Shown in pieces: positions 6,643 to 44,165 of a DNA stretch of 64,000 nucleotides. A model generated the notes under the pieces. That model saw only the letters and a list, made by a program, of their open reading frames with translations, was not told the DNA's origin and ran no database searches. The translations under genes were made by a program, and so were the position numbers. Source of the stretch: Octopus vulgaris (taxonomy: Eukaryota); contig OX597814.1 in NCBI GenBank assembly GCA_951406725.2, positions 141,298,001-141,362,000 of the forward strand. The letters are read 5' to 3'. Position 1 is the first letter of the stretch. Each line of letters opens with the position of its first letter.

Positions 6643-7212
6643 ATACAAAATAAGAAAATGGAGAATTACATCTAAATCAAATATCGATTACCAGATAATA
6701 CTCAATCACATACTTTATTAAGCCACCATATGAGAAACTGTAAGGACAAACATAATGAAGTAGAACAAAATAGTGTACATAAAGGATGGCCGAAACAGCT
6801 GTAAGATGTAGTCTATATCTATACTTATATTTACTTATTTTTACATTATCTTATACATATTGTACTTACTGTATAACATTACTCCTTTATGTACACTCCT
6901 TTATGTACACTATTTTGTTCTACTTTATTATGTTTGTCCTTACAGTTTCTTATGTGGTGGCTTAATAAAGTATGTGATTGAGTATTATCTGGTAATCGAT
7001 ATTTGATTTAGATGTAATTCTCCATTTTCTTATTTTGTATTATGAATTTGTGGTAAAACATTTTACCTTTGCCCATATAATACAGTAAGTGAATTAATTG
7101 CATCACAATTATTAACATTTATGTATTAACTTTGATGGGTACTTAACTAGCGGTAAATTGGATATATGTTATCCCATGGAGGGTTGCATTTACAACCCCT
7201 ATCTCAATTTGT
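6643..7212. mobile_element. non-autonomous PLE-type insertion with inverted arms
   Basis: 6643-6787 is the reverse complement of ~6897-7040. The plus arm starts with a half-hammerhead ggcc-GAAAC-AGCT-GTA. Flanked by (TA)n. Confidence 0.65.
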
Positions 7213-7215
7213 AAA

Positions 7216-7656
<441 letters not shown>

Positions 7657-10600
7657 TCCAGATATTCACTGTTTCACCGTTGCAAAAACTAAAAGCACTT
7701 TCAAATCGTAGTTTCTGTATTATCTACTTTATTGGCTCGTGGGGATGCTATCTTAATGTACGGTGTATCTTGGGCATTAGAGTCTTGGTGGAACCTTATC
7801 TCTTTCCAGATATGGCCACAGTCAATTTTATCTACAAGGAGAGAAAGCGACAGAGATCATGGAATGAGCTACGGGAAAAGAAATGAGAAAATGTGAGGTG
7901 CATGTTTTGCCTTTATACACCAGCCACATAAATAAGAGTGGTTTCTTTCACCTTTAGGGAAACAAGAATGTACTTTTGCCTACCCCAGAACACTCGCTTA
8001 AACTACAAGCATAAAAACAGAAACAGAACTAGCAGTAACAAATTAACAGCAGCCCCTCCTAGTGATGGAAATTCTAAATAACTACAAAAGGAACCAAACA
8101 TTTTAAACAGGAGTAATACAATATTAGAAAACAGACTACACAAACTGTAAAATCTCTCAGGTGATAATGTAAAACAAATGTTTTAATCAGGTTTCTGCAT
8201 TTTTTAATCAATCCGTGATTAATTATTTCCTTTGTTTTACGCTTCTTTAATCTTTAATTAATTATCATAACTATCAAGTTGGTTGGTACAAAGAAGTGAT
8301 AAAAATAGTGTTCTAAAATAGATTAAACAGAAAGATTTCGGCTGGACTTAAGGAAGAATGTATTCTTGGGATGTTAATAGAGTAATGGTTATAAAACAAA
8401 TGTATAAAAAACATTTTGGAAGAAGCTTAATAAAGGAATAAATTTTAACAGAAAACGGATAACATGGTTACCTCCTTGAAGCACCATACGATACATCAAA
8501 TATTTAAGCCATTCCTATTGTAACTTTATTTCCCTAACCTTTTTCTTTTATAACACGTTTATTTTATTTAATATATTATTCCATTTGCGATATTAATATT
8601 GCCTGCAGGAACAAGTTGTGACTGATTTGATAAATGTACAGTGACTTTACTCAATGCACTTTTAAAGAAAGAAAAACTCGTACCTTTTCGGTTTTTCGAG
8701 TGTCAGCTTAACTAATGTAAAATTCGTTTCTTTTCGTTGTTTCTGCCTTCAGGAATAGTTGTGGAAATCACTCACCAAATTACTCTTGTTTCCATCAATG
8801 TAATTTTGGCACATCAATGTAATGTTTAATTGTTAATTTCCAGTTCAAAATGGAAAAAAAAAATTACATGCATTTTTGCACAAATTTATACTTTCGTATA
8901 CATCAGGAAGCTTTTAAAGACAACTGCTATAATTCAAAAACTGCTGAAACTCCCGTAGATTTACAACGTTGCTTAAAAATAACAGTAGAACAATTCAAAT
9001 CGTCAGAAAATGTGAGAAACAAGTAACTATTCGCTTTTTTTTAATGAGAAGATTATAAGGATAATTTTCTAATAATTTCTAATACTTATGCAAAGCCACA
9101 GATCAAGAAGGAAACAATAAATTTCATTAAGCCCAGGATTTCAGCAGCTCTTATCTTCATCGAACCTGAAAGGAAGAAAAGTAAATCAAACCACGTCGGT
9201 ATTTGAAATCATGGCTTAGAAATAAAGGTAACTAGATGCGATGGCATTTTGTCTTGTATTCTACTTGTTCAGCCAAGAAACAACCTTGTTTTGTGCAATA
9301 ACGATTTCAGAACGACATAATGACTGAGAGGGTGAAGAGGTGTCTAAAGGACAATGTTTTTTTTTACAGTAAAATATAAACCCAAAGAAACAAAAAAAAA
9401 CAACAATAAAAACCCCCAAACAGAACAACATTTAAAACTAGGTAGTGTGGAAAATCTGTACATCTACAGTTGAATCAGAAAAGGATGGCTAGCGCCAATA
9501 CACGACCAATTTCAGGGTCACCAAGACTTACAGAAGGAATTGAGTGGGAGTGAAATTACCCTTAGACCGGAAACCTGCTGTCAGCAGGGTGGACGTCACT
9601 AAAGACACCGAAAGTGGACAAAATATGCGTATCACTCCAAACAACTTTCGCTCACAAGGGTTTGGTGGACTTTAGCTTTGGTAGAAGAAACTTGCCTAAA
9701 GTGCAGTGCAGTGGGGTAGAACTAGAAACCATGTAGTTGTGAAGCGAATTTGTTAACTATACAATCATTCCTGCATCTTAAACATACACCAGCAATAATC
9801 TTCCGGTCGTTTTTCAGTTTAAGGGCTGAAGAGTTGGTAACAGTTCTGATAAAAAACGGTCAGTGTCTGGCCAGAAGTTACTCCACGAAAAGCTTTCTTC
9901 TTGATTTTGGTTCCTCCTCTGCAGCTGACCTTTACAACGGGCGTCTCTAAGCATCTATGTTTTGAACATAGAAGGGAAAAACACTCAAAATGTTAACAGA
10001 TCACAGAAAATATCAGATAAAACATGACCTGCAATTATTATAAATTAATTAAATAGCAGTCACAAAGAAACAAAAATTATCTTGCTTCAGAATGCTCAGT
10101 CAACGAAAATCAGATAAATGAACTGATGCAACAGAGTTGGTTGGGACAATGTTAATATTGTAAAAAATGACACAGAAAACTGAAAATATAAATGATAAAG
10201 ACACATACCATTAAGTGTTTGAAGATTAACAGAAGCATACAAAAATATATATTATAAATGATAGAAAAATATATATTATAAATGATAGAAAAATATATAT
10301 TATATAAAAATTATATAATACAAATATTAAAAATACATATTATATAAACAAATATATATTATAAATCAAAAATACTATATTATCCTACATATCCAAGCCT
10401 ATTCCCCATTTTAGGAGGGGTAGTCACAAGACACATACCAGGCATTCCATTCATTTCGCAGGTCATGGAATGGAATAATAAAAAAATATGAAATACATAT
10501 AAATATAATTATATATTATATAAAAATTATATATTTTAATATAAAATTATGTATTATTATAAAAACGATATATCATAAAAATGATATATTGTCATACATG

Positions 10601-12127
10601 TGAACAAACAGAAATGAGAAGCAAATCTGTTAGAAATAAATATTAAAGGTCACAAAAGTTTTAAAATGTCTTTTTATGGGTGTTTCGATTTCTGAATACA
10701 AGAAGAGTTTCCTGGAAGAACTGAAAAACTGTCGAAGAATTTCCTCTCATAAAAAGAATATGTATGAAAGTACAAATATTCTGAGTAATCTTTGATTCAC
10801 ATAGTCTAATAAAAAATATAGAAATGTATAAATTGGTAAGATACGAACTACCACCCTACCATCCCCACCACCATCTTTATCATCAGCTTAACGTACGAGT
10901 AAGAACAGTTTTAGGTACATTGCACACATTAAGCATAAATCTATTATTATTTCCATATATATATATATATATACACACACATACACAAACAGAACACCCA
11001 TGAAAGACGCACACAATATATGTGCTAACCCGTTTACACATGATGTACATAGATGCGCATTTCATTCGGTGATGGAGCGGATGCATGCAAACCTGTAATA
11101 CTGTAAATAACGATGATAAAAATAATAACAATGATAATGTAAAAAAGGAGAACAAAGTCATGGAGAAAAAAAAAAAAGAAATTGAGTTAGAAGGAAAGGA
11201 AACTTTCTCATGTTAGAAAAACTGCATTAATTGCAAACAACAATCAATATTTAGCAATAAATTGCTTCTAACTTCAGAGAAATGAACTGAATACCTTTTT
11301 TTGTGTTTTTTTATATATTTCTGCCCATAACATCTGCAGAGTTAATTAAAAATTCCAGGTTGGTTTTCTTTTCCTTCTGCCGGGAACAAATAACCTGCTG
11401 GATTGAAGGGAATCGATGCGGTAGAACAGTTTGCCGCTATTTTATCTTATTTTTTTTCGTGTACAAACCGAATTTTTGTAGCTATGTCATGTCATGGCGT
11501 ATGGGGTCGCTATGTTTAATAACTTGCTAAGAGATTTGCAATGTTTTTTTCAACCAATTTCAGAGAAAGATTCTGAATCGTCCCTTTCTTTTCCTTTTGT
11601 CTTCTTGTTTTTTTAATATTTACAATTCTTCCACTCGCAGTTTCTCTTACTCTTTCCCATTCTTGCTCACTCACACACAAATTTTCTCTCTTTCACCCTC
11701 CATCTCCTTTTTCCTAAAGTATTTACGCATTATATCGCAGTCATAGTTTATATCCTAGTTACAATTATATAATAGATTCGGAATTTTTCAACCCTATAAT
11801 ATACCATGAATTTACGTTATATCACGGTCTGATGTAATATCAGTAACGCGTAAGCTTTCATGCGTTATCAATCTCACGATATTTGACGAACTGATATTAT
11901 ATAATAGGATGCTGTATGAAAGTCTTGCGTGGAGTCACATCTCTCTTTCGTACATCCGTACTAATATAACGAGTTTATGACATTCTGTAGATTCCTGCTA
12001 GTTTCAAAGCTTTGTAAGTGGATTTGATAGACGGAAACTGAAAGAAGCTCGTCGTATATATATATATATTTGGCGTAGGAGTGGCTGTGTGGTGAGTAGC
12101 TTGCTTACGAACCACATGGTTCCTGTT

Positions 12128-12318
12128 TCAGCGTGACACAGAGTGTGACAAGGCCGGCCTTTTGAAATACAGGTACAACTCATTTTTGCCAGCTGAGTGG
12201 ACTGGAGCAACGTGAAATAAAGTGTCTTGCTCAAAGACACAACGCGTCGCTGGTAATTGAACTCACAACCTTACAATCGTGTGCCAAATGCCCTAACCAC
12301 TAAGCCACGCGTCTTCAC
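12128..12318 (-). mobile_element. SINE family C (tRNA head + Meta-like domain), partial
   Basis: Reverse complement of ...gcgtggcttagtggttagg...cacgttgctccagtccactcagctggc matches 24986-25253. Confidence 0.7.
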
Positions 12319-12527
12319 GCACCTACACATCATATCCACAAGATATCACACATCAGGTGGGAAGTGCAAGATCGAATAGGCTGGCGAGTGATTACTTGGG
12401 TTTTAGATTACTTGAGAATTTAAGGATTGTTTCGGATATGTTGCGTATTCTTCGAGATAATGAACGTTTCATTTTGCTTTTCTATTTTTTTTTTGAGGAA
12501 GTTAAAGATAAAACAAGAAAGTGAAAG

Positions 12528-12990
12528 AGGAGTGACTGTGTGGTAAGGAGCTTGCTTACTAATCACATGCTTTCGGGTTCAGTCCCACTGCGTAGCAATT
12601 TGGGCAAGTGTCTTCTGTTATAGCTTCGAGCCGACTAAAGCCTTGTGAGTGGATTTAGTTGATGGAAACTGAAAGAAGCCCGTCGCGGCCTTCGGGCAAA
12701 AACCTTTTTAAGGATTTAAGGATATATATATATGTGTGTGTGTTTGTGTATATGTGTGTGTGTGTGTGCATGTTTGTGTGTCTGTGTCCCCACCCCCAAC
12801 ATCATTTGATAACATTCACTGGTGTATTTTCGTCCCCGTAACTTAGCGGTTCGGCAAAAAAACTGATAGAATAAGTACTAGGCTTACAAAGAATAAGTCC
12901 TGGGGTAGATTCGTTCGACTAAAGGTGGTGCTCCAGCATGGCCACTGTCAAAATGACTGACTCAAATAAATAGAAAAATAAAAGAATAAT
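12528..12990 (+). mobile_element. SINE family B (tRNA head, CORE-like ttgggcaagtg, internal TG/TA repeat)
   Basis: Matches the 61365-61775 copy along its length. Confidence 0.8.
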
Positions 12991-13004
12991 AACAATGAAT
13001 AATA

Positions 13005-13335
13005 CTGGCATTCCGTCGGTTTTGAGGATAAGCATTCCGGTTGAACCGATCAACGGAACGACCTGCTCGTGAAATTAACGTGCAAGTGGCTGAGGACTCC
13101 ACAGACACGCGTAAACTTAAAGAAGTTCTTAGAGTGATTCAGTGTGATACAGCATGTGACAAAGCAGGCCCTTTTTGAATTATGGGTACTAATCATTTTT
13201 GCTAGCTGAGTGGACTGGAGCAACGTGAAATAAAATATCTTGCTGAGGGACACGATAACACCGCTGAGTATCGAATTCGCGATTGTAAAATCGCGAGTCG
13301 AACACCTCCTAACCACAAAGCCACACGACTTCATA
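13005..13335 (-). mobile_element. SINE family C variant
   Basis: Shares the head and the ctgagtggactggagcaacgtgaaat segment with 12128-12318. Confidence 0.65.
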
Positions 13336-14013
13336 ATCACAATAAAGGCACTACTAAATATGTATTCGGAGAAAGTATCCACAAGTAGCCATAAATATGT
13401 ATAAAACTTTTAAACATTATGCAACAATATCCTTCCCAACAGATAAGACCTTTTTATATCTTTCCCAGTAATTTTTCATTTTATTTTTATATTTGTTCTT
13501 TATTTTCTGTATGCTAAATCTACTCCTTTTGCTCAACGTCGATATTTTAAACAAATAAATGCATAAACTTGAACACTATACAACAGATATAACACAATCC
13601 ACTATTTCAAATCTTTAGATTCCCAAGTAATCCATAACAATTTCGCTCAATAATTACATTAAAATTTTTCCCGCTCGTTAAACTTTTTCGATTTAACTTT
13701 TAACCCCTTAAATTTCGTATTTTAAATTAGTTATATTTTGAATTTAAATTTTACGTTATCAATATTCCAGCATTTTTATAGTTTAAAATTTCCTTTCGCT
13801 AAAAATTGAATGCTTAAATTCTCAACAGAGCGGACAGAGACACGTTTTAATGAGATCCACGCACGCAAACGCTAAAAGATGGCAAAGTGACTTCAACAGA
13901 TCATAAACACTCCAATATAATTTACATCAAAAATACATTTCAAAACAAATACCTCAGACCTCCACGTACAACAACCACTCCCGTCTTAATGGTTTCATGA
14001 AGTTCTTTTGAAC

Positions 14014-14015
<2 letters not shown>

Positions 14016-14052
<37 letters not shown>

Positions 14053-14192
14053 CTATATATGTATATTTGTATGTATATATTTATGAGTATGTATACGTAT
14101 GTATATAAATACTTACACATGTGTATATGTGTATATCTATCTATCTAGCTATCTATCTATCTATCTGTCTGTCTGTCTATCTATCTACCTAT

Positions 14193-14259
<67 letters not shown>

Positions 14260-14388
14260 TATATACATATATATATACATACATATATATTTATACACAC
14301 ACACACACACACACACATATATTTATACACACACACACACACACATATATATATGCATATATGTATATACATATATACATATATTTAT

Positions 14389-14434
<46 letters not shown>

Positions 14435-14844
14435 AGCTTACGAAACACATGCATTAAGTATACATGTGTTCGTGTGAATATATATATGTATGTGTGTGTA
14501 ATTATATACACACATACATATATACACATACATACATATAATTTATACATGCGTTTCGTAAGTTATCTAAACATATGTATAAAAAATAAAGAAAATAATG
14601 AAAATAGGGAAGGTTGTTGTAAGTGGAGATGCGAGATATTGTTTACTATATAAATAAATACACACACACACACACGCACTCACTCACTCACACACACACT
14701 CACTCACTCACTCACACACACACACACGCACACACACATACACACAAACACGCACACACATATATATATATATAAACAGACACAAACGTATAAATTACGT
14801 GTATATATATACAGATATACATACATATACAGTATCTCATTCTG

Positions 14845-14876
<32 letters not shown>
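14016..14876. repeat. long compound TA/CA/TCTA microsatellite tract
   Basis: Direct reading of the sequence. Confidence 0.9.
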
Positions 14877-14877
<1 letters not shown>

Positions 14878-14878
14878 G

Positions 14879-15582
14879 CAGCAAAATCAAGGAACGGCCA
14901 TAATAGGCCATTCACCCACTAGAAATAACAGCCAAGGCTTCAACCGCAAAACAACATTAATTCCGTAAACCAGGAGAAAATTAAAAAAACATTTACCCTG
15001 TAATTCTTTATACGATGCACCGTTTCGTCTATTGTTTAATGGTAAACTAACCTGATTAAATTAAATCAAGCTAGTCTTCCATAGGCCGATAGATTCATCA
15101 GTAAAGAACGGCCAGATCGGAGCAGATATTTACACGAGGCACTTCCACCACTGTCTCAGCAATATCTGACCTAAAATTTTCAAATCATCGCACTCGCGCC
15201 AAATTTATCGGCAGCAAATATAAGCCGCCGATTCCATTACGGAATTAACCAGAAAATTCATAATTAATCAATATAGGGTGGCAAAAAATTTCGCAGAATT
15301 TTTTGCCACCAGCGGTCTAGTGGGAAAAAATTAAATAGTCATAGACCATTTATAAATTCAACAGCAAAATCAAGGAACGGCCATAATAGGCCATTCACCC
15401 ACTAGAAATAACAGCCAAGGCTTCAACCGCAAAACAACATTAATTCCGTAAACCAGGAGAAAATTAAAAAAACATTTACCCTGTAATTCTTTATACGATG
15501 CACCGTTTCGTCTATTGTTTAATGGTAAACTAACCGCTGGTGGCAAAAAAATTCTGCGAAATTTTTTGCCACCCTATATTGA

Positions 15583-15587
<5 letters not shown>
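14879..15587 (-). mobile_element. non-coding hammerhead-bearing element: 483-bp monomer, 1.36 tandem units plus a 55-bp inverted cap, in (TA)n
   Basis: 14879-15052 is identical to 15362-15535 (period 483). 15533-15587 is the reverse complement of 15263-15316. Confidence 0.85.
15004..15108 (-). ncRNA. type I hammerhead ribozyme
   Basis: ttcttta-CTGATGA-atctat...atagac-GAAAC-ggtgcatc-GTA-taaagaa. 7-bp stem I, canonical core, near-palindromic stem III, GUA cleavage triplet. Confidence 0.85.
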
Positions 15588-15620
<33 letters not shown>

Positions 15621-16366
15621 TATACATATACATATACATATATGCATATATTGCATATATATATATACACATAGATATAGATATATATACGTATATGTGT
15701 GTGTGTGTGTGATATGAACATTCACACACGATTGTATAATGTGCGTGTATATATTTGCATATAATGTATTTGTGTGTTTGTGTATGTGGGTGTATTTATG
15801 TATTAAATTTTTTTTATCATTTCTTCAAATGCCTCCATTGTTTCAATTGTTTATTTTGCTAATTTTAGCTTTCCGTAACTGCTTTGAAGTTTTTAACAGA
15901 AATATTGAAATATTTCCGAATTTTCTCCAATCCTCAACATCACGTTTCAAAACAGAGTATATTTTTCTCTGCTGCATAAGGGAATGTTATCTAAATAGTA
16001 ATTTCTTTCCAACTATATTTGTAAGTAATGCTGAAATTGTATACACGTTATCTACTATATTACTCTATTATCGAAATCTTTTATCGGTCACTATTTATGG
16101 TTATATATTGTTTTGTTAGTTTATGATTTATTTTTAATGATTAAACAATGTCTTTTTCGGTTTTGTTCCTGATTTAAAACAATTTTTCAGTAGGTCTTTC
16201 CTGAGCATGAAAATACATCACATGATTTCCCGCATACGGCTTTTTTTAATGCTTTTTCTTTTTTACTTTGTATATTTTGATGTATTGGTGTTTGAAGTTA
16301 ATATTTTAACCATTATTCTATGAATTATCAATAGTAAAGCAAAGTTAGTCAAACTTGTAGTCAAGC

Positions 16367-16397
<31 letters not shown>

Positions 16398-16487
16398 TGT
16401 TGAAATTTACAGAAAAACAAAAGACGAAGACAGGTGTATAAACAACAAGCAGGTGTATTAGTTTGACGCTCGTGAAAATGAGAAAGT

Positions 16488-16523
16488 CTTTTACGTTTCG
16501 AGCCTTCGCTCTTCAACAGAAAG
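16488..16523 (-). ncRNA. minimal hammerhead-like motif (core CTGTTGA)
   Basis: cttt-CTGTTGA-a-gagc(gaag)gctc-GAAAC-GTA-aaag. Confidence 0.55.
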
Positions 16524-16880
16524 GAACACGATGAAATAAACAGAGAGAGAATATATTTCGTTCTGAAGTTTGATGGTTTAAGCAGTGACAGCCGAGGAAA
16601 GAGATGAAAAAGAAGGAGGGGAAGAAGAAGGAAGAAGCAGAGGAAGGACAAGAAAAAGTAGATGGAGAAAACGAAGAAGTAGTAGTAGTAGTAGAAGACG
16701 GGATTGGTATGACCCAGTAGTAGAAGCTGTCCGTGAAATCTAATGGTCAAGTGATCTAAAAGTGACCTGTTGTGGTTGTAGCAGTAGTAGTAGGAATTGT
16801 TCTAAATAAATTCATCGGTAGCGACTGTTCTTAATACATCTGTTGTTTTTAATATTTGCGTGGGTATTATTCTAGAATAA

Positions 16881-17098
16881 TTATGTTTGGCGGCGAGCTG
16901 GCAGAAACGTTAGCACGTCGGGCAAAATTCTTAGCGGTATTTTGTCTGCTACTACGTTCTGAATTCAAATTCTACTGAGGTCGACTTTGCGTTTCATCAT
17001 TTTGGAGTCGATAAATTAAGTATCAGTTGTATACTGAGGTCGATCTAATCGACTGGAGCCCCCCTCAAATTTCAGGCCTTGTGCCTATAGTAGAAAGG
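16881..17098 (+). mobile_element. SINE family A with 15-bp TSD
   Basis: TSD attattctagaataa at 16866-16880 and 17099-17113. Confidence 0.85.
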
Positions 17099-17369
17099 AT
17101 TATTCTAGAATAAAACGACAGATATATTAAGATCAGTCGCTAACGATGAATTTATTTAGAACAATTCCTACTACTACTGCTACAACCACAACAGGTCACT
17201 TGTAGGTCACTTGACCATTAAAGTTGATTGTACGGACAGTATCTACTTCTTTTTCTCCTCTTCCTTCTTCTTCTCCTTCTTCTTCTTCTTCTTCTTCTTC
17301 TTCTTCTCCTCCTTCTTCTTCTTCTTCTTCTTCTTCTTCTTCTTCTTCTTCTTCTTCTTCTTCTTCTTC

Positions 17370-18485
<1,116 letters not shown>

Positions 18486-21212: not shown

Positions 21213-23375
21213 GATGTGTGGTGTAGCATGGTGGTGCTGATGTGGTGTGTGGTGTGGTGGTGTTTGGGTGGCGGGAGGCGAGAGTGGAGAGAAGAAAGGG
21301 TGAGGTGTGGGTTGGGATGAGGGTGGAGTAGGGAAGGGGTATGTGGGGTGGGTGTGAGAAGGAGTGCAGTGTGTGGGAGTGGAATGTATGGGATGGGGTG
21401 GGGTGAGATGGGATGTATAGGGATGGTGGTGTAGGGGTGGGGTAACGATGGAGGGGTGAGAATGAAGAAAGAGGGTGAAAGGAGAAGGTGGATTGGAGTG
21501 AAGAGAGGAAGTAAGTGTCAGAGCAAGGGAGGAGAGGTGGGTGAGAGTGAAGGGAGGAAATAGGTGTGAGAGGAAGGGAGGAGAGAGGAGGGGTTAGATG
21601 AAGAGGGGAGTAAAGTTGAGCCCATGTGTCGTAAAGGAGCGAAGAGAGAAGATTAATTCCTGGTCACGGCGAAGACGGGAGTCCGGATGGCCCCTGTGCA
21701 AGGACAATTCGAACACAGACAGGTGTTGTAAAGAATGACTGGTAGAGCAGAAATGGCGCGAAACCGGAGTGTCGTTGCCGAGTCTGATGTCTCGGACGTG
21801 TTCCGCGAACCGGTCAGCCAAGCGGCATCCCGTTTGACCGATGTACAGAGAAGGACAGCGAGAGTAGGAGATGCAGTAGATGACGTTGCTAGAAGTGCAG
21901 GTGAAGAAGTCAGTGATATGATAGGGTCCATGATGGGTGTCGGTGAGGATGGTGGTGTTGGAAATGTAAGGGCAAGTGTAGCAGCGTGGGCGGGAGCAGG
22001 GGAACGAGCCGAGTTAGGAGGTTGGTTTAGGGAAAAAACTGTGGACTATGAGATCACGTAGGTTGTGGGCTCATTTGAAGGAGGGGGTCGGTTGGGGAAG
22101 ATGTGCGAAGTGGAGAAGTCGAACTGGAGTCGCCGGAAGGCTCGGAGAAGGGTGGGTTGGAGAGTTAGGGTGGAGGGGTGGTAGGCGAGGGGAAATGGGG
22201 ACGGGTGACGGCGTGGCGGGTGCGGATGGAGAGAGCAGATGCACGGGCCACGGAACGTGCTCTGGCAAGGAGGTGTGGATAGTGGTGAGGGGATATCCAC
22301 ATAGGATGAAGTGGCGAGCCATGAGTTGAGACTGAATCACAAAGTTATAGATGTCACTGTAGAGCCTGCGCAGACGGAGGAATTGAGAATAGGGGATGGA
22401 GAGCTTGGTATGTTTAAGGTGGAAGGAGGAGAAGTTGAAGTATGAGTATGAGTATGTGTGTTTGTAGTGGATGGTGTTGAGGGTGGAGTGATGAATGCTG
22501 ACCGCAATGTTGAGAAAGGTGACGGAAGTGTCGGAAATATTGCAGGAGAAGTGGCGGGCAGGATGGAAAGATTGGACAAAACAGAGGAAGGAGTCTAGTT
22601 GCTCGCGGGAGAGTGAGGTCGCACCGATACAATCGTCAATATAACGACCGTATAGTTCAGAAGTGGGACCAGTGAAACTGGAGAATATTTGGGTCTCAAC
22701 GTAGCCACGAACAGGTTCGCATAGTTGGGGGTCCATTCTCGTTCCCGTGGCCCTCCTGAGAAATGTTGGTAAAAATCACCCGCGAACGAGAAGCAGTTAA
22801 GAGAGAGAACAAGTTCGGCTAGACGAAGAAATGTGGATGTGTAAGGTTGTGGGGTTGGGTAGGAGGTCCAGGTAGTGTTGGAGTGCACGAAGACCCTCGT
22901 GGTGAGGGATCACCATGTATAGACTCTTGATGTCAAGAGTGAACAGAAGTTTAGAGGCGTCAGGAGAGAAAAAGAAAGAGTTGAACAAACGAAGAGCATG
23001 GTTGGTGTCATGGATGTGAGAGGGGAGGGAAGCCACTAAGGGGGCAAAGACACGGTTAAGATATCTGGAGATAAATTCGATTGGGCAGTTGCAGGTGGAG
23101 ACGGTGGGGCGGCCAGGGTTGTTAGGTTTGTGGATTTTTGGGGAGGAAGTAAATTGTGGTGAGAGGAGTGTGGCCAATGAGGATAGAGGCGGTGAGGGGA
23201 GACAGGAGGTTATGGATAGTGGAGGACACCGTCTGTTGGTAGCCGGGCGTGGGGTTGGAGGGCAGAGGGCAGTAGACGGAGGGTTCTTGAAGTTGGCAGA
23301 GAGCTTCGGCCTTGTAGAGGTCCGCGCGCCACACCACCACGGCTTCACCATTGTAGGCCGGTTTTATGATGATGT
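21213..23375 (-). mobile_element. Neptune-type Penelope-like element, frameshifted (RT + GIY-YIG + low-complexity 3' UTR)
   Basis: VVWRADLYKAEA, PKIHKPNNPGRPTVS, LFTLDIKSLY, YGRYIDDCIG, SIPYSQFLRLRR, C-x-R-x-x-CYTC, NVIYCIS..LYIGQTG.RLADRFAEH, spread across several frames; stop at 21594. Confidence 0.9.
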
Positions 23376-31879: not shown

Positions 31880-31899
31880 CATATACATATGTGTATGCG

Positions 31900-32234: not shown

Positions 32235-32236
<2 letters not shown>
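31900..32236 (+). mobile_element. SINE family B
   Basis: Matches 61365-61775. Confidence 0.75.

Positions 32237-32281
<45 letters not shown>

Positions 32282-32285
<4 letters not shown>

Positions 32286-32833: not shown

Positions 32834-32836
<3 letters not shown>
32282..32836 (+). mobile_element. internally deleted mariner element
   Basis: 5' TIR ttgtgtcatcccatagataatgcgg. MEGTKEHIEHILLHEF is fused to WETIPHPAYSPNIVPFDYHLFRS...LPDRWMTIVENEGEY. Confidence 0.85.
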
Positions 32837-32887
<51 letters not shown>

Positions 32888-32890
<3 letters not shown>

Positions 32891-32915
32891 TTATATATAT
32901 AAAACTGAGAATGCG

Positions 32916-32946
<31 letters not shown>

Positions 32947-33904: not shown

Positions 33905-33905
<1 letters not shown>
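32888..33905 (+). mobile_element. non-autonomous Helitron in (TA)n
   Basis: 5' A|TCtttatatatataaa, (TCTG)n, 3' hairpin gacccg-gcaacaa-cgggtc (33877-33895), CTAG|T. Confidence 0.85.
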
Positions 33906-33951
<46 letters not shown>

Positions 33952-34109
33952 TACAAAATAAATATAAGAGAGTGGTCACTATATGGCTCACTCTAGCACC
34001 AGTTAATCCAAAAGGTTTCAACCACAAAAATACATGTTTCCCATGAAAGTCAGTACGATTGTTAGCTCACACGGACAGGGCAAATAAAAAATAACAAAAA
34101 TACAGATTA

Positions 34110-34191
34110 TTTTGGGACAATTGTTTCGCTATTAATGAATTAAATGTAATTTTACTTACAAAAAAATCCACTTGTAGCTCGTCAGCCAAAA
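34110..34191 (-). ncRNA. type I hammerhead ribozyme
   Basis: Exact reverse complement of 34793-34874. Confidence 0.85.
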
Positions 34192-34792
34192 CTATCTGGA
34201 TGAAATCCACTCAATCACACGCCAGATTTTACCATAACGATAAATACGCGTGTGGTTCAATTGATTACATCCGACGTTATAATTCAAATGCCCCAACTAA
34301 CAGCGCGCCAAACTCTCACGGAAAACAAATACTGCATTTAGAAATAAATGCAGCATAATTATAATTAATTAATAAGGGTGAGAGAATTAGATACTAATTT
34401 AATAGTATATCTATTCAATACCAAGTGGCCTAGTGCTCCGAGAAACCTGGATTATTATAATATTTTATAATATATTATAATATTTTTACAAAATAAATAT
34501 AAGAGAGTGGTCACTATATGGCTCACTCTAGCACCAGTTAATCCAAAAGGTTTCAACCACAAAAATACATGTTTCCCATGAAAGTCAGTACGATTGTTAG
34601 CTCACACGGACAGGGCAAATAAAAAATAACAAAAATACAGATTATTTTGGGACGTTTGTTTTCCGTGAGAGTTTGGCGCGCTGTTAGTTGGGGCATTTGA
34701 ATTATAACGTCGGATGTAATCAATTGAACCACACGCGTATTTATCGTTATGGTAAAATCTGGCGTGTGATTGAGTGGATTTCATCCAGATAG

Positions 34793-34874
34793 TTTTGGCT
34801 GACGAGCTACAAGTGGATTTTTTTGTAAGTAAAATTACATTTAATTCATTAATAGCGAAACAATTGTCCCAAAA
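34793..34874 (+). ncRNA. type I hammerhead ribozyme
   Basis: ttttgg-CTGACGA-gcta...tagc-GAAAC-AATT-GTC-ccaaaa. 6-bp stem I, canonical core, palindromic stem III, GUC triplet. Confidence 0.88.
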
Positions 34875-35180
34875 TAATCTGTATTTTTGTTATTTTTTAT
34901 TTGCCCTGTCCGTGTGAGCTAACAATCGTACTGACTTTCATGGGAAACATGTATTTTTGTGGTTGAAACCTTTTGGATTAACTGGTGCTAGAGTGAGCCA
35001 TATAGTGACCACTCTCTTATATTTATTTTGTAAAAATATTATAATATATTATAAAATATTATAATAATCCAGGTTTCTCGGAGCACTAGGCCACTTGGTG
35101 TTGAATAGATATACTATTAAATTAGTATCTAATTCTCTCACCCTTATTAATTAATTATATATAAATATATATATATATAT

Positions 35181-35387
35181 AAGTCAGTAAATGGTGGGAT
35201 TGTGTTAACCGCACGTGATGAAATTATAGAAGAAAAAAATAATAAGGCAGAATGCTAAATTGAAAGTACATTCTTTCTTTTTTCTTTTTTTCATTTTTTC
35301 TTTTTTAATTTTTCATACACCCACCCATTTTTATTAAATTGTACTTTCAATTTAGCATACTGCCTTATTACTTTTTCTTCTCCTATA
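35181..35387. mobile_element. short PLE 3'-terminus relic with inverted arms
   Basis: 35181-35258 resembles the reverse complement of the Neptune terminus at 44085-44165. 35225-35270 is inverted at 35340-35387. TA flanks. Confidence 0.65.
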
Positions 35388-35459
35388 TATATACAACTAT
35401 GTTTTATGTAGTCACTTTCTCTCGGACTTATGGACACTAAACCGATTATACACACACAC

Positions 35460-35553
<94 letters not shown>

Positions 35554-36687
35554 CAACGACGTGCACGCGTGTGTGTGTACTATATCACACCATATCACTT
35601 TCTACCAATGACGATTGCAACTATAACAATGACCAATGAAAGTAACATTTCATCTTAGGATGATAGATCTAACCTTTAAGCTACTCATTAGATTACTAAA
35701 ACCAAGCTGCGACTCATTACAAAGAACAGCTAACTGCCCGAGGAAGAAATGTTCTCATCATTTCCTTTTTTTTTTATCTTAAGAAAAACAATAAAACACT
35801 CCCAAAATAGGCTTGGTCATCCTTAGTTTAGTCACTTCAGGCAATATGTCTGCCAAATAATAAGTGTCGATGTTACATTTCTTTAACTTTTTTAGTTATT
35901 ATTAGTATTATTTTATTTATTTACTTTTTTGTAAGAAAAAACATCTCAAAGGAGTCAATTTAGTTGAGCAACTGCTACTTTTATCCACTCCTCATTTATT
36001 TTACTTCCGAACCCTTATCCGAGATAATCCCCACCTTTGTTATGCCTCTGCTATCCTACCTCAATTAAAATTGTTACCTGTGAATAAGAGAAATAATTGA
36101 GATACTAGAAGTCATTGTAGTTTTCTCCTGACTAATGTAGTTTGTATTTCGTATTTAACTAAACATTCGCTCTCTACTTCGAGTTTGGCCTTTCTTTTCT
36201 CCAATATTTGAATAGAATAAATTCACTTCTTTGCTTCAAGTCAGAAGTAATTATCTTTACTTGCAGCAAGATAAGGTACAAATGGTCTTGTTGCTGCTGC
36301 TGTTGTTGTTTAGACCCATGTTAACCGTGATCGAGCTCACCTGTGATCAAAACCAAGCGATTATCTTTAACAGGCACTGCAAAAAGCATTTAATTAAACT
36401 ATCACACACGCCCACACATATCCAGACACACACACATACGCGCGCTCGCATATGTATCCGTTTAATTCACTTTGGGCGAATGCCTCAGAATGTACTCTTA
36501 AAATCTGCTATGTATATATATGTACACACACATACACGCACACACATAAGTGTATGACATGTATGTATATAGTGGGTTTGAGGATATAGTGACTTTCTTA
36601 GGGATTATAAAATCCAGAGATCAACTGGTGTCATCAATGATATATTGGGAGAATTCTCTCAATATAAAGGGATAAACATCTAATATA

Positions 36688-37194
36688 CCGTAAATCCTCG
36701 AGTATAATCCGCATTTTTTCCCCCAAAATTTAAAGGCCAAAATCCCTAGTGCGTACTATATACGAGGTTAAAAATGAAAATTATTTTCTAAGCAATGTCC
36801 GAGTCACTATTTGCTGTCCGGCAATGTTTATTCAGAAGTATTTTGTGATGTCGGGCTCGAAAATACCTTAAGCTAAGCCTGGAAAGCAATGAAGTCATAA
36901 AAGGATCATCCGTATCTTGCAGTAAGCAACATTTATTAAACGTTATTACTGTTATTTCTTTATTTTCTGCAAACAAAATGCACAAAAAAGCTACACGTTT
37001 GCATTATCTTATATAATAATAAAGGACGTTACCGTATACATTTTTACAAACCAAGGACGTTATATAGACCTCCTTGACTCAAGTTAGAAAAGGGGTGCGT
37101 ATTATACACAAGGTTTAGGTTTTTCAGAGGTACAACCACCGAAAAATCCCCTGCATATTATACTCAAAGGCGGACTATACTCGAAGATTTACGG
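36688..37194. mobile_element. MITE of Tc1/mariner/pogo type
   Basis: TIRs ccgtaaatcctcgagtataatccgc / gcggactatactcgaagatttacgg with TA TSD. Confidence 0.85.
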
Positions 37195-38064
37195 TACATT
37201 TATTACTATAAGTAAACGGAGAAAAATACTGTGGATGCTAATTTTATTTGTATCACATTGAATATACATTAACATAAAAGAAGCATAAGAAGTACCTACA
37301 CATGTTTCAATCTGGTCACAATGTAAACAGTGCTTGTGTGTGTGTGTGTCTATGTTTGTCCTCCCACCGCCACTTGACGACCGATGCTGGTGTGTTTATG
37401 TCCCCGTAACTTAGCGATTCGGCAAAAGACACAGATAGAATAAGTAGTAGGCCTAAAAAGAATAAGGCCTGAGATCGATTTGCTCGACTGAAACCCCTTC
37501 ATGGTGATGTCCAGCATGGCCGCAGGCAAATGACACACAAATAAAAGAATACATATATATATTGGTATAAACTTCTGGCACAAGGTCAGCAATTAAGGGG
37601 TGGGTATAAGTCGATTACATTGGCCTTAGTGTCGGACTGGTACCTGTTTTATCTACTTTGATTGGACGAAAGGCAAAGTCGATCACAGCGGCACTTAAAC
37701 TCCGAACGTAAAGTGGGGGATGAGATGCCGCTAAGTATTTTGACCGGTGCGGTTCTTTAAAAAGATTTGTATTGACAGTGACTTCGAAGTTTCGATCAGC
37801 TAAGCTATCGACGTGTACACACACACATGCATTTATAAGTATATATATATATATATATATATATATTTACTTGTTTCGGTCATTTGATTGTGGCCATGCT
37901 GGAGCACCGACTTTGGTCGAACAATTCTTTGTAATCCTAGTACTTATTCTATCGGTGAATTTTGCTGAACCGCTAGTTTTCCCGGACGTAAACACACCAT
38001 CCTCGGTTGTCAAGCGATGATGTGGGTAGAAATATAGACACACAAATACATACACATATGTATG

Positions 38065-38110
<46 letters not shown>

Positions 38111-38163
38111 CATATATATATATACATATGTATCTATATATAAGTATGTATGTATGTATACGT

Positions 38164-38198
<35 letters not shown>

Positions 38199-38359
38199 CC
38201 AGCCAGAAATTGCAAATATAATCTGGAACTCGACTGAGGAAAGAAAACTCCGAATGACCCGTCCTTGTTTTCTTTGTATCGTCTATCTGGATGTTTTGTT
38301 GTCCTTTTTTGTATCACCTAACTCTCTGGATGTTTTACGTTCTTGTCCCATTTTAGTAT

Positions 38360-38396
<37 letters not shown>

Positions 38397-39191
38397 CACG
38401 GACTTCTTTCAGTTTCCATCTACGAAATCCACTTACAAGGCTTTGGTCGGCCCAAGGCTATAGCAGAAGACACTTGCTCAAAATGCCTCACAGTGGGACT
38501 GAACCCGGTACCATGGGGTTGGGAAGCAAGCTTCTTACCACACGGCCACGCCAATATACATACACATACACACACACACATACACACACACACAAACACA
38601 CACACATGTATATCTGTTGTAAATAATGTATATATAAGCACATCTATCTGTATATCTATGTATTGTTCGTTCATTTAGTTCACGTGGTAAGGGGACAACT
38701 CTTCTGTCACAGTTGAACACGCACGTGATAGGCACAGAAAAAAGAGGAAGTAATTTTAGAGATAGAAAAATAATAAAGACGATGAATTATATATTGAAAA
38801 CAATTTAGTCAGAGAAGAAGAGGACGGCACACATGACCGATGCAAGCACTCCTAAACTGATAACGTGATGGTGGTTACGGTGGTAGTAATCGTTATTTAT
38901 ACCAAGGTCAACCTCGATAGAACAAACTTCTGATGAAAGGTGAAACATCCCGCCATTTTCTTTAGAGTATTGCAGTGAGTCATAACACCACGTTATTCGT
39001 AACGGTAGAAAATAATGTTTTGTTCTAACCATGGTTTCACTTTTTGAACTACGACCAAACTGTGGAGCGTCATCTTCCAGGCTGTCAATCATATTCTTTC
39101 CCGCTATTAATTTTAGGCTCGTATTTGTTTCACTGATTTCTATATGATTCAAGTTTTTGACACACCATTGGTTTTTACACACACACTCACA

Positions 39192-39273
<82 letters not shown>

Positions 39274-39275
39274 TA

Positions 39276-39314
<39 letters not shown>

Positions 39315-39318
<4 letters not shown>

Positions 39319-41940
39319 AGGAAAAAATTTTTTTTAAATGCAGAATGCTCAAATGAAAGAAAATTTTAATAAAATGAGAAAATGATAAAATATATAAATA
39401 TATATATTTATTCAACCGGTTTTCGTCAATGTATGACTTGTCAAGAATATTTATGTTTTAAGAAGTTTTTTAAAAATTAGAAAGGGGAAAAAAAGAAAAT
39501 TGCAATGTTTTTTGTAAAAGAATAATGATAAAAATGTACAAAAATTAAAAAATAAGTTCTCCGATACATTGTGAGTTCGTTGTGTATCTTGAGTTTTATG
39601 GTTGTTTACCAAAAAATTACCTTGAGGTGTTAAGATCCAAAGGGATTAAGAGCATGTGATGTGTTGTGTTGTTAAATTCAGCATGTTGCAGGACAGGAAG
39701 TAGTAGTAATTGTGGTCCTGGTTCTTCAGTTCCTGTGTTGTGAGTAAGGGGAGACAACTCTTTTGAGTTCTTCAATAAAACCCAAATTATAAAACTATCA
39801 TTTTAGCTTCATTTGCATTATCTTTTTTATATAAATGCTTGTTAACTTAACTTTCAGATTTTAACACTTGATTTATATTATTTTCTAATAATATAAAACT
39901 GCATAGACAATTGCATTTCAAATTGTCATATCATTTATAATAAAAATGATAGTAGTAACAACAACAATAGTGAAAATGATATTTAAAGAATATAAGTTTT
40001 AGCTTGAAGTGGTGAATGCATGGTATCTTTATATATTTGTGTTAGTCCATCCATGAAGAGTGAGGTAGAGAAAGGAAGTTTGATCAACGAGGAGTTTGCA
40101 TATTAAGTTGTGTTTGGAATTTTTCAATAAAGAGATTCTCCTTGTTAATTCTCTCCTGTGTGGTGATCCCGTCTTTACATTGGTAGAAGGGGAATATATA
40201 GAATTTGGGGTTTAAGTCTTTAGCACATGAGTCTAAGTGGTCACTCAGTGGAATTTGTCGGTATTCCGGGAGATTTATTTGTTCTTTATGCACCGTTACT
40301 CGTTTACGTAACGGGAGACTCGTTTGTCCCACATAATTATGTTGGCAACCAGCGCATGTGAGAACGTAGATAAGGTTCTCGGAGGAACAGGAGAAGTTAG
40401 TCTTGATTTTAAACTTCGTACCTTGTTTGAAGGTAAATTCAGAGCCTTCAAGTAGAAAGGGGCAGGTACCACAGTTTGAGCGTGCACATTTTTTTACTGT
40501 TGGGGGTGGATGTGGTGTGTGAAGTTTGGCATTTGTCAAGAGTTTTTTTAAAGATTTGTGTTGCCTTTTGCATTTGAGGATTTTGTGTGTATTTATAATG
40601 TTTTTCATTTTTGGGTCTGTTGACAGTAGACTGAGGTTTTGTATGATTGTGGTGTATGCTTCGATATTTTTGGGGTTGTGGGTGGAAATGTATGGAAGTA
40701 TTTTGAGGTTGTGTGTGGTGTTAGGTTGGGTGGTTATCAGTGTAGTGTTGTCTAGTTCTTTGGCGCGTTTTATTCCATACTCTATAAGGGTGGAGGGATA
40801 TTGACGTTGTAATAGTGTTTTTTTGAGGTCTTGAAGGCGTATTTCTCGTGTTTTTGGATCCGAGACAATGGTGCATACCCTTTTAGCTAAATTGAAAGGG
40901 ATATTTGTCTTGGTGTGTTTTGGGTGGCATGAACTAAAGAGGAGGTATTGTTGTGAGTCTGTAGGTTTGTGGTAGATGTCTGTTATGATTTGGTTCTTAG
41001 GTGTTTTTATAATTAGGAGATCAAGGAATGGGAGATGATGTTTGCTTAATTCCATAGTGAATTGGATGTTGGGATGTATGTTGTTTAGTATGGTTTTGAA
41101 TTCCAGGAGTTTTTCATAAGGTTCTTTCCATATGATGAAACAATCATCTAAATACCTTTTCCAGTTTTCCATTAGGTAGGTGTGGAAAACATGTCCAAAT
41201 TTCTGGCTTGATATTTCATAGAGTGACAGTTCGAAGTAACCCATTATGAGGTTCGCAAGGACTGGTGCAGCCTTGGTACCCATCGCAATGCCACATTTTT
41301 GACGGTAGTGTGTGTCGTCGAAGAGAAAAAAATTGTTTGTCAGAATGAACTTAAGAGATTCTGTAATAAAAGACTTGTTAATGCGGTCAGGGAATGTCTC
41401 TGGGTGTTTTTCTAGCCAGAAGTCAATTGCCTCTATACCATACTCATGTGGAATGTTGGTGTAGAGGTTGATGACATCAAAGGATACCAGGAGTGCCTCC
41501 TCGTTAACTGTTTTCGGGAGGTGTTTGAGCATGTCCAGATCATCCCTAATGAAACTTTTGATGTGGGTAAGGAAAGGTTTCAAAAGGATGTCTAGGAAGT
41601 TACTCAGGCGGTGTGTTTCACAGGAGGTACCAGCCACGATGGGCCTTAGTTTTAGGTCCTCCGGTGCTTTGATGTTGATGTGGATGTCAGTGGAGAGTTT
41701 GCAGGCTTCGGTGATGTATTTGTTTTTATGGATTTTAGGAAGGCCATAAAAAAGGCTGGGCTTGCATTTGAAAATGGTGATATAATCCCTTTCTTTTTCT
41801 GTGAGTCCCTGACCGTGTTGGCGTATGAGTGTGGTGAGGTTTCTGATTGTTTTTTGCTGTTTGTAGTTGTTAATAACCTCATAGAAAATGTTATTGTTAA
41901 GCATGGAGAACACTAGGTGTTTATAAAATTCCGTTATAAA
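39315..41940 (-). mobile_element. Neptune-type Penelope-like element, left arm of palindrome (5'-truncated)
   Basis: Contains an uninterrupted RT-GIY-YIG ORF and a ~770-bp 3' UTR ending at (TA)n. Confidence 0.95.
40084..41940 (-). CDS. PLE reverse transcriptase + GIY-YIG endonuclease (N-terminally truncated, ~618 aa open)
   Basis: FYGLPKIHK, LRPIVAG, LVSFDVINLYTNIP, YRQKCGIAMGT, RYLDDCF, LPFLDL, HPKH, Neptune-type CARSNCGTC, NLIYVLTC..C...YVGQT...LRKRVTVH. The first 9 aa of the track ORF come from the antisense of the right arm. Confidence 0.95.
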   Translation of the reverse strand, partial: FITEFYKHLVFSMLNNNIFYEVINNYKQQKTIRNLTTLIRQHGQGLTEKERDYITIFKCKPSLFYGLPKIHKNKYITEACKLSTDIHINIKAPEDLKLRPIVAGTSCETHRLSNFLDILLKPFLTHIKSFIRDDLDMLKHLPKTVNEEALLVSFDVINLYTNIPHEYGIEAIDFWLEKHPETFPDRINKSFITESLKFILTNNFFLFDDTHYRQKCGIAMGTKAAPVLANLIMGYFELSLYEISSQKFGHVFHTYLMENWKRYLDDCFIIWKEPYEKLLEFKTILNNIHPNIQFTMELSKHHLPFLDLLIIKTPKNQIITDIYHKPTDSQQYLLFSSCHPKHTKTNIPFNLAKRVCTIVSDPKTREIRLQDLKKTLLQRQYPSTLIEYGIKRAKELDNTTLITTQPNTTHNLKILPYISTHNPKNIEAYTTIIQNLSLLSTDPKMKNIINTHKILKCKRQHKSLKKLLTNAKLHTPHPPPTVKKCARSNCGTCPFLLEGSEFTFKQGTKFKIKTNFSCSSENLIYVLTCAGCQHNYVGQTSLPLRKRVTVHKEQINLPEYRQIPLSDHLDSCAKDLNPKFYIFPFYQCKDGITTQERINKENLFIEKFQTQLNMQTPR

Positions 41941-44165
41941 ACTCCTGGTATCCTTTGATGTCATCAACCTCTACAACATTCCACATGAGTATGGTATAGA
42001 GGCAATTGACTTCTGGCTAGAAAAACACCCAGAGACATTCCCTGACCGCATTAACAAGTCTTTTATTACAGAATCTCTTAAGTTCATTCTGACAAACAAT
42101 TTTTTTCTCTTCGACGACACACACTACCGTCAAAAATGTGGCATTGCGATGGGTACCAAGGCTGCACCAGTCCTTGCGAACCTCATAATGGGTTACTTCG
42201 AACTGTCACTCTATGAAATATCAAGCCAGAAATTTGGACATGTTTTCCACACCTACCTAATGGAAAACTGGAAAAGGTATTTAGATGATTGTTTCATCAT
42301 ATGGAAAGAACCTTATGAAAAACTCCTGGAATTCAAAACCATACTAAACAACATACATCCCAACATCCAATTCACTATGGAATTTAAGCAAACATCATCT
42401 CCCATTCCTTGATCTCCTAATTATAAAAACACCTAAGAACCAAATCATAACAGACATCTACCACAAACCTACAGACTCACAACAATACCTCCTCTTTAGT
42501 TCATGCCACCCAAAACACACCAAGACAAATATCCCTTTCAATTTAGCTAAAAGGGTATGCACCATTGTCTCGGATCCAAAAACACGAGAAATACGCCTTC
42601 AAGACCTCAAAAAAACACTATTACAACGTCAATATCCCTCCACCCTTATAGAGTATGGAATAAAACGCGCCAAAGAACTAGACAACACTACACTGATAAC
42701 CACCCAACCTAACACCACACACAACCTCAAAATACTTCCATACATTTCCACCCACAACCCCAAAAATATCGAAGCATACACCACAATCATACAAAACCTC
42801 AGTCTACTGTCAACAGACCCAAAAATGAAAAACATTATAAATACACACAAAATCCTCAAATGCAAAAGGCAACACAAATCTTTAAAAAAACTCTTGACAA
42901 ATGCCAAACTTCACACACCACATCCACCCCCAACAGTAAAAAAATGTGCACGCTCAAACTGTGGTACCTGCCCCTTTCTACTTGAAGGCTCTGAATTTAC
43001 CTTCAAACAAGGTACGAAGTTTAAAATCAAGACTAACTTCTCCTGTTCCTCCGAGAACCTTATCTACGTTCTCACATGCGCTGGTTGCCAACATAATTAT
43101 GTGGGACAAACGAGTCTCCCGTTACGTAAACGAGTAACGGTGCATAAAGAACAAATAAATCTCCCGGAATACCGACAAATTCCACTGAGTGACCACTTAG
43201 ACTCATGTGCTAAAGACTTAAACCCCAAATTCTATATATTCCCCTTCTACCAATGTAAAGACGGGATCACCACACAGGAGAGAATTAACAAGGAGAATCT
43301 CTTTATTGAAAAATTCCAAACACAACTTAATATGCAAACTCCTCGTTGATCAAACTTCCTTTCTCTACCTCACTCTTCATGGATGGACTAACACAAATAT
43401 ATAAAGATACCATGCATTCACCACTTCAAGCTAAAACTTATATTCTTTAAATATCATTTTCACTATTGTTGTTGTTACTACTATCATTTTTATTATAAAT
43501 GATATGACAATTTGAAATGCAATTGTCTATGCAGTTTTATATTATTAGAAAATAATATAAATAAAGTGTTAAAATCTGAAAGTTAAGTTAACAAGCAATT
43601 ATATAAAAAAAGATAATGCAAATGAAGCTAAAATGATAGTTTTATAATTTGGGTTTTATTGAAGAACTCAAAAGAGTTGTCTCCCCTTACTCACAACACA
43701 GGAACTGAAGAACCAGGACCACAATTACTACTACTTCCTGTCCTGCAACATGCTGAATTTAACAACACAACACATCACATGCTCTTAATCCCTTTGGATC
43801 TTAACACCTCAAGGTAATTTTTTGGTAAACAACCATAAAACTCAAGATACACAACGAACTCACAATGTATCGGAGAACTTATTTTTTAATTTTTGTACAT
43901 TTTTATCATTATTCTTTTACAAAAAACATTGCAATTTTCTTTTTTCCCCTTTCTAATTTTTAAAAAAACTTCTTAAAACATAAATATTCTTGACAAGTCA
44001 TACATTGACGAAAACCGGTTGAATAAATATATATATTTATATATTTTATCATTTTCTCATTTTATTAAAATTTTCTTTCATTTGAGCATTCTGCATTTTA
44101 AAAAAATTTTTCCTTACTTATCATTTCTCCACGTGCGGTCAACACAACCCCACCATTTATTGATC
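41941..44165 (+). mobile_element. Neptune-type PLE, right arm (inverted near-identical copy; 3-bp deletion ~41975, +1 frameshift ~42385)
   Basis: 41941-44118 is the reverse complement of 39315-41494. ORF pieces 42149-42412 and 42825-43349 repeat the left-arm protein. Confidence 0.95.

Follow-up and report, generated by a model that had tools for sequence, protein, structure and literature searches.

Why should six insertions in one stretch of octopus DNA, drawn from several element families, each consist of two arms of the same element set back to back? The window analysed here is 64,000 nt of Octopus vulgaris contig OX597814.1 (141298001-141362000; contig C1), from a genome of 2.8 Gb, and at all six loci the left arm lies on the minus strand and the right arm on the plus strand, as determined by self-BLAST and by reading of the sequence. 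Over their common part the arms are identical at 141/144 positions at locus 1 (6643-7212), 58/60 at locus 2 (14879-15587), 209/261 (~80%) at locus 3 (16398-17369), 43/48 at locus 5 (35181-35387), and 2172/2184 at locus 6 (39315-44165), and at locus 4 (33952-35159) they are 95 to 99% identical by BLAST. Arm direction is set by the reverse transcriptase (RT)/GIY-YIG open reading frame (ORF) at locus 6 and by type I hammerhead motifs elsewhere. Three type I motifs, all of them in loci 2 and 4, came from a pattern scan of the window that gave zero hits in 10 shuffles, whereas a narrower pattern detected no true motif; at loci 1, 3, and 6 variant cores were identified by eye, and an Rfam scan of the window gave no hammerhead among 140 matches, most of which are microsatellite noise. 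Self-BLAST, the ORF, and hammerhead polarity agree with the preliminary description, in which minus-left and plus-right arms are joined at their truncated ends at all six loci.

The flanks of five loci were also described correctly, with (TA)n on both sides of all but locus 3, and loci 4 and 5 share a single TA run (35160-35180). Outside the microsatellites the flanks are not mirrored (~47-50% identity). At locus 3, earlier drawn as 16398-17250 and as lying between two microsatellites, the left-hand (TATG)n flank stands, whereas the (TTC)n on the right is rejected as a target flank, since it matches TTC-rich sequence within the left arm and abuts the (GAA)n 3' end of a minus-strand LINE remnant, which we take to be RTE-like. 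The right arm of locus 3 contains no hammerhead, and its outer end was not found. Elsewhere in the window there are further degenerate palindromes at 2046-2290 and 45380-45753, the second of which consists of the abundant SINE-like repeat, as well as Tc1/mariner transposase remnants at 47219-47635 (+) and 51141-51671 (-) and a tRNA-like match above the Rfam cut-off at 3770-3843 (-).

Table 1. Arms, motifs, and flanks of the six insertions, in window positions; N and T are the short and tail end sites described in the text
Feature	Position	Strand	Remarks
Locus 1 left arm, family F1	6643..6786	-	Ends at short (N) site
Locus 1 right arm, F1	6786..7213	+	Begins with 3' half of hammerhead motif; ends ~173 nt on, at tail (T) site
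Locus 2 left arm	14879..15535	-	~1.35 units of 484-bp tandem retrozyme M2; N end
M2 type I hammerhead motif	15003..15101	-	Predicted cut after 15011
Locus 2 right arm	15534..15587	+	T end; junction microhomology 2 nt
Locus 3 left arm	16398..16875	-	Hammerhead-like motif 16488-16519; (TATG)n flank, other copies mostly TA
Locus 3 centre, SINE-like repeat	16866..17113		Between 15-bp direct repeats 16866-16880 and 17099-17113
Locus 3 right arm	17112..17369	+	80% identical to left arm; ends in TTC tract
Locus 4 left arm	33955..34653	-	~1.3 units of 535-bp tandem retrozyme M4; N end; hammerhead 34109-34185
Locus 4 right arm	34655..35159	+	T end ~130 nt past N; hammerhead motif 34799-34875
Locus 5 left arm, 3' end of sibling PLE subfamily	35181..35272	-	T end
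Locus 5 right arm	35340..35387	+	N end
Locus 6 left flank, (TA)n	39279..39314
Locus 6 left arm, PLE monomer positions 1949-4568	39315..41934	-	N end; 5'-truncated
Locus 6 left-arm open frame, RT + linker + GIY-YIG	within 40084-41970	-	5'-truncated
Locus 6 junction insert, 6 nt	41935..41940		Copy of neighbouring sequence
Locus 6 right arm, monomer positions 2389-4615	41941..44165	+	T end; one frameshift near 42350-42400
Locus 6 minimal hammerhead motif, U3-A8 core variant	43985..44025	+	Mirrored in left arm; read from sequence
Locus 6 47-nt tail	44119..44165	+	Right arm only
Locus 6 right flank, (TA)n	44166..44187

Several families contribute to the six loci: the Penelope-like element (PLE) of locus 6, its sibling subfamily, a distant PLE lineage represented by its 3' end, two retrozymes, and a long noncoding family. 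From its predicted features, locus 6 is assigned to the EN+ PLEs, with an RT followed by a C-terminal GIY-YIG domain, partial tandems (pLTR), an inverted copy, and a tail. Its left arm matches Pfam RVT_1 (E=7e-8) and its right arm matches GIY-YIG at E=5e-4, under the curated cut-off, and its homologues carry both domains, none of the homologue hits being named by clade. The unit is 4,615 bp long and occurs in partial tandems, a tandem unit being seen in L033; a U3-A8 minimal hammerhead motif is predicted in the pLTR. The family is young, and the genome contains 703 exact matches to one 20-mer of its 3' end. A C-X4-C-X2-C linker is present at residue 495, and the endonuclease has a CxxC inside the GIY-YIG core and downstream histidines that together form a CCHH-type motif, so that both Neptune features, a CX2-5CxxC linker and a CCHH motif, are found. 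The 24-residue spacer after the linker is of Neptune-like length, compared by eye with four rows only of the PMC8557442 supplement, in which it is ~25-27 residues in two Neptune rows and 7 in two Nematis rows. Judged by these motifs, the linker and endonuclease are classed as Neptune-type. The Hydra clade, which is marked by the absence of CCHH, a CxCX5C linker, and a DKT motif (PMC8557442), was rejected, with a CCHH-type motif present and DKG in a full-length unit, as was Naiad, whose endonuclease is N-terminal.

The Neptune-type character of this element had been proposed together with its autonomy, and the latter does not stand. Its arms start at monomer positions 1949 and 2389 of 4615 and both lack the 5' end, and none of seven full-length units (L031, L033, L036, L040, L043, L044, and L047) has a single unbroken ORF. 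The position of the breaks varies, homopolymer runs being hit in some cases, and assembly noise may account for them; RT slippage and programmed shifting are, with assembly error, candidate sources of the frameshifts present in all seven. Six of these units have a frame starting near unit position 1538, just upstream of the RT.

Nor is one element with passengers an adequate description, as at least two PLE lineages are involved. Locus 5, taken earlier for an unrelated passenger, derives from the 3' end of a sibling PLE subfamily that matches locus 6 at 77-79% and has longer copies encoding a GIY-YIG end. In 2 of 25 loci, the 3' end of locus 3 is common with a distant PLE lineage. A decayed fragment of that lineage lies in the window (21594-23363, minus strand; 25% protein identity to locus 6), and relatives of this fragment end in the locus 3 hammerhead end. 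M2 (locus 2) and M4 (locus 4) are tandem arrays of noncoding units, 484 and 535 bp long, that each contain a type I hammerhead, features by which they are putatively classed as non-LTR retrozymes; the longest array has ~11 units, and an M4 20-mer has 1,107 exact genome matches. In a long M4 arm (C28:10732667-10739031; L079/L080/L284), variants recur every four units, a pattern that a circular template of four units or a block duplication would leave. F1 (locus 1) is a noncoding family of at least 1.18 kb in other copies. Of its 28 hammerhead motif occurrences, 18 have the core CCGAAGA, a U4-to-C variant, in place of CUGANGA, and 10 were left unparsed; around 30 F1 loci, no PLE ORF was detected by tblastn within 1.5 kb.

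The geometry extends beyond the window. In a census by exact 20-mers, with the matches listed covering all of C1 and the start of C2, the 98 M4 matches on C1 form 40 clusters with 17 strand switches, every one of them minus-then-plus; for the PLE, all 22 switches within 10 kb among the matches listed (16 on C1 and 6 on C2) run the same way, and arm polarity is evidently nonrandom. Arms end at two fixed internal sites per family, a short site (N) and a tail site (T), which are 47 nt apart in the PLE, ~100 in M2, 130 in M4, and ~173 in F1. A TA run is present at 77 of 81 PLE ends at either site, versus 4% of 5,000 random window positions, and within 30 nt of 26 of 34 candidate M4 N ends; of the M4 N candidates without TA, four are internal to an array and no true ends, and three are copies of a single duplicated locus. 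One M4 insertion has been duplicated with its flanks at four places on C1 (L094, L140, L141, and L142), three of them within 0.7 Mb.

Some loci depart from the common layout. A plus-then-minus piece is present at one F1 locus (L230), and L035 and L168 are complex. L168 (C1:94340838-94344412) consists of four short inverted units in a row with TA between them, and its right arms end at an internal AT-rich site. The T ends of L045, L173, L206, and L087 run into (TC)n and not (TA)n, extending the terminal TC of the element.

The preliminary description had missed that the two arms end at different fixed sites: the arms of one insertion nearly always end at one N and one T site. The full set of 58 PLE clusters on C1 includes 19 N+T pairs and a further 4 in which the partner arm, of the complementary type, is 11-23 nt long. 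Counting these, N+T makes up 23 of the 24 pairs whose ends are both canonical, against about one half expected if the arms chose their sites independently. The remaining pair, an old cluster (L155), looks N+N; in 7 of the 58 the partner arm ends at a noncanonical internal site, and 27 have a single orientation (16 N and 11 T). All 22 pairs among the 40 M4 clusters are N+T, which amounts to 19 independent events once the four copies of one segmental duplication are counted as one, and the single-orientation clusters comprise 9 N and 9 T. The top-hit sets for the other families, which are biased by query, agree with the census: M2 has 14 N+T among 17 junctions, F1 has 9 adjacent N+T among 30 loci, and the locus 5 family (F5) has 10 N+T and 4 T-plus-other among 30 loci, with zero back-to-back T+T in F1 or F5.

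In the predicted folds of an M2 monomer (L249) and an M4 monomer (L079), N lies at the loop end of a small hairpin within an enclosing stem. M2 and M4 also have 26 nt in common at the T site (88%, with a weak E-value), and a poorly designed pattern for a common M2/M4 tail site gave zero matches.

Junctions between N and T arms are blunt, have 1-3 nt of microhomology, have longer microhomology, or carry an insert in 8, 13, 2, and 14 cases for the PLE; the corresponding numbers are 11, 11, 2, and 14 for M4 and 0, 6, 0, and 8 for M2, the retrozyme insert counts being up to five too high since the classification does not wrap past unit position 1. Microhomology of at least 2 nt is present in 14 of 33 PLE junctions without an insert, versus 15% by chance. 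Several inserts repeat nearby sequence, and inserts of this kind are known for host end-joining. Searches with the locus 4 right arm against two raw-read runs recovered very few reads (1 and 13), with no strand-change joints among them, and contig runs gave fragments, one of which has a TA loose end at the N site (35027).

The two arms of an insertion also share family variants. With homopolymers and 8 terminal bases masked, and for pairs with enough overlap, arms differ less within than between insertions in 27/27 PLE, 31/32 M4, and 11/12 M2 pairs, although three of the 12 M2 pairs (L245, L265, and L271) are near-ties that differ about equally within and between loci. At sites that segregate in the family, discordance is 8/776 for the PLE (184.5 expected), 2/363 for M4 (75.5 expected), and 12/126 for M2 (51.0 expected). 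Gene conversion between arms may add to this concordance, and 57 private differences separate PLE arms. The arms overlap by up to 3,202 scored positions, and in about half of the pairs neither is nested in the other, each holding sequence absent from its partner.

We favour, with moderate confidence, a mechanism of two-ended priming in (TA)n by one complex, in which the two ends of the break prime separate cDNAs, both copied from the same source transcript. In its favour, beside the counts above, is an anole Poseidon PLE that, in vitro, cuts and extends both strands and uses two internal RT start sites that bound the tail (PMC11167929), and that has a predicted dimer and an AT-rich target (PMC11167929). 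The enzyme, with its GIY-YIG domain as the probable cutter, would cut both strands of a TA repeat, and each 3' end of the break would prime its own antisense cDNA, so that the left arm reads minus and the right arm plus. A two-subunit ribonucleoprotein would direct one DNA end to site N and the opposite end to site T; as the (TA)n target is symmetric, the N/T split must originate in the protein-RNA complex. The RNA would extend past both sites, as tandem read-through or as a circle, in keeping with arms longer than one unit, which imply a tandem or circular template. Host end-joining would then join the two cDNA ends, and single-arm copies would be events in which the second cDNA was nil or lost. 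That both ends of a break prime reverse transcription and that the two cDNAs are joined had been proposed from the window alone, and the idea accords with arm direction and flanks, with the lack of nesting, and with the brief microhomologies and inserts at junctions, but it is favoured only in this modified form. Counting against it are the PLE clusters with a noncanonical partner end (7/58), the N+N-like L155, the L230 piece, the complex L035 and L168, and, from M2, the three near-tie pairs and the lack of a reach correlation.

The published self-priming explanation, in which a strand turns back at a palindrome (PMC3846280) and a one-sided tail arises from staggered endonuclease resolution (PMC8557442), accounts directly for arm concordance, and a few junctions do lie at natural palindromes with equal 5' ends (within 5 nt in 3/37 PLE and 1/38 M4 pairs). 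The correlated reach of the two arms in census pairs is also in its favour (rho 0.76, n=22, for the PLE and 0.50, n=20, for M4), M2 showing no such correlation (rho -0.33). However, turning back predicts nested arms, or a tail consistently on the longer or the shorter arm, whereas the N arm reaches further 5' in 15/37 PLE, 18/38 M4, and 8/14 M2 pairs and the T arm in 19, 19, and 6, respectively (pooling census and top-hit loci and excluding two of the four duplicated M4 loci), and PLE 5' ends lie up to 2,329 nt apart (median 440). The self-priming route is contradicted by these counts unless cut polarity is random and the loop is later trimmed, and we regard it as distinctly unlikely. Priming from both ends on two separate RNAs of one active source locus, held together by an asymmetric enzyme dimer, seems to us somewhat less improbable, though still unlikely. 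It fits the polarity, the pairing, and most of the concordance without strand displacement, and it also fits the few M2 and PLE pairs that have segregating differences, but an extra source of asymmetry is needed on symmetric (TA)n. It further has to contend with 14 multi-unit loci in which every unit shares the variant at 42 of the 86 variant positions, and with L052, where one unit-specific variant is in register in both arms.

Independent insertions at one TA hotspot, later homogenized by gene conversion, would agree with the reuse of TA runs, such as the one run at loci 4 and 5, but there is no TA between the arms, the polarity is one-way, and the private PLE arm differences persist; the N+T pairing rule as it stands refutes this explanation, to which we give very little credence. 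An assembly or library fold-back artefact is scarcely believable. No reads spanning a junction were recovered from the two raw-read runs, and the homopolymer frameshifts of the full-length copies suggest assembly noise, but the ends are family specific and asymmetric, the flanks are not mirrored, the arms diverge by up to 20%, and one junction recurs with its flanks at four places by segmental duplication.

Within two-ended priming by one complex, a stricter version can be put forward tentatively, and may well not hold: one dimer on one RNA would deliver the short start site to one break end and the tail start site to the other, both RTs would copy the same stretch at once, and unrelated ribozyme RNAs would have kept the same two-site handle to ride the machine. 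This one-RNA version would require the trailing RT to displace the first cDNA. If it is true, the tail, the inversion, and the partial tandem are three marks of one reaction. The notion of a hairpin-generating system is not supported, and the hairpins read as by-products.

The origin of the tandem and inverted PLE structures and of the tail is named as an open question in PMC8557442, and self-priming was left untested where it was proposed, in the account given in PMC3846280. The young and numerous octopus families provide counts that separate the models, namely one-of-each ends, shared variants, and non-nested arms; because of these counts the open mechanistic question becomes directly testable, and they predict sharply what the established in vitro PLE system (PMC11167929) should show. 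Mobilization of retrozymes by PLEs has been proposed (PMC7229834; bioRxiv 10.64898/2026.07.22.740005), and the same footprint on two retrozyme families supports their movement by PLE enzymes, an insertion footprint that we read from the sequences as direct genomic support for PLE-type copying. The word "inverted" is absent from the main text of PMC7229834, and in that of bioRxiv 10.64898/2026.07.22.740005 it occurs once, in a reference title, while "tail" is absent. M2 and M4 otherwise resemble animal non-LTR retrozymes in their unit size, tandem noncoding organization, and hammerhead type.

Among known systems, L1 twin priming is the obvious comparison: two DNA ends prime two cDNAs on one RNA, leaving an inversion with short microhomology, in segments that are nonoverlapping and with a variable second site. 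Here, in contrast, the two arms cover a common 3' region and end at sites that are both fixed and internal, and membership in L1-type twin priming was rejected on the extent of arm overlap. The term "twin priming" was not found in the PLE literature searched. The anole Poseidon PLE, although of a different clade, resembles the octopus PLE in that both strands are extended and two sites bound the tail; its start sites lie inside the ORF start, whereas the octopus T site is 29 nt before the first ATG. The two anole start sites show no strand preference in vitro (PMC11167929), which leaves that system unable as yet to account for the pairing rule, and no description of inverted insertions or site pairing was found in the parts of that paper available to us.

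The layout and the element classes are already known, and the elements are ordinary members of those classes; the recurring geometry is not new, being the published PLE insertion unit. In EN+ PLEs this unit has partial tandems, and an inverted 5'-truncated copy adjoins the 5' end (PMC8557442 and PMC3846280); the tail is often one-sided, the target is (TA)n or AT-rich, and a hammerhead lies near the 3' end (PMC8557442 and PMC3846280), with the insertion mechanism left open in the relevant passages of both papers. The U3-A8 hammerhead variant and opposite-strand hammerhead pairs 100-700 bp apart have also been reported (PMC4209133), and siRNAs arise from inverted PLE copies (PMC3681739). Neither the one-of-each pairing rule nor counts of arm concordance and non-nesting were found in the PLE and retrozyme literature consulted, and older reviews or supplements may state them. 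The octopus insertions share with the published unit the partial tandems, the inverted truncated copy, the one-sided tail, the (TA)n target, and the hammerhead near the 3' end. They differ from it in the tail, which is optional and 30-40 bp in the published unit (PMC8557442 and PMC3846280) and 47 to ~173 nt in the octopus, and in the near-strict combination of one tail-less and one tailed arm, with the two arms concordant and non-nested.
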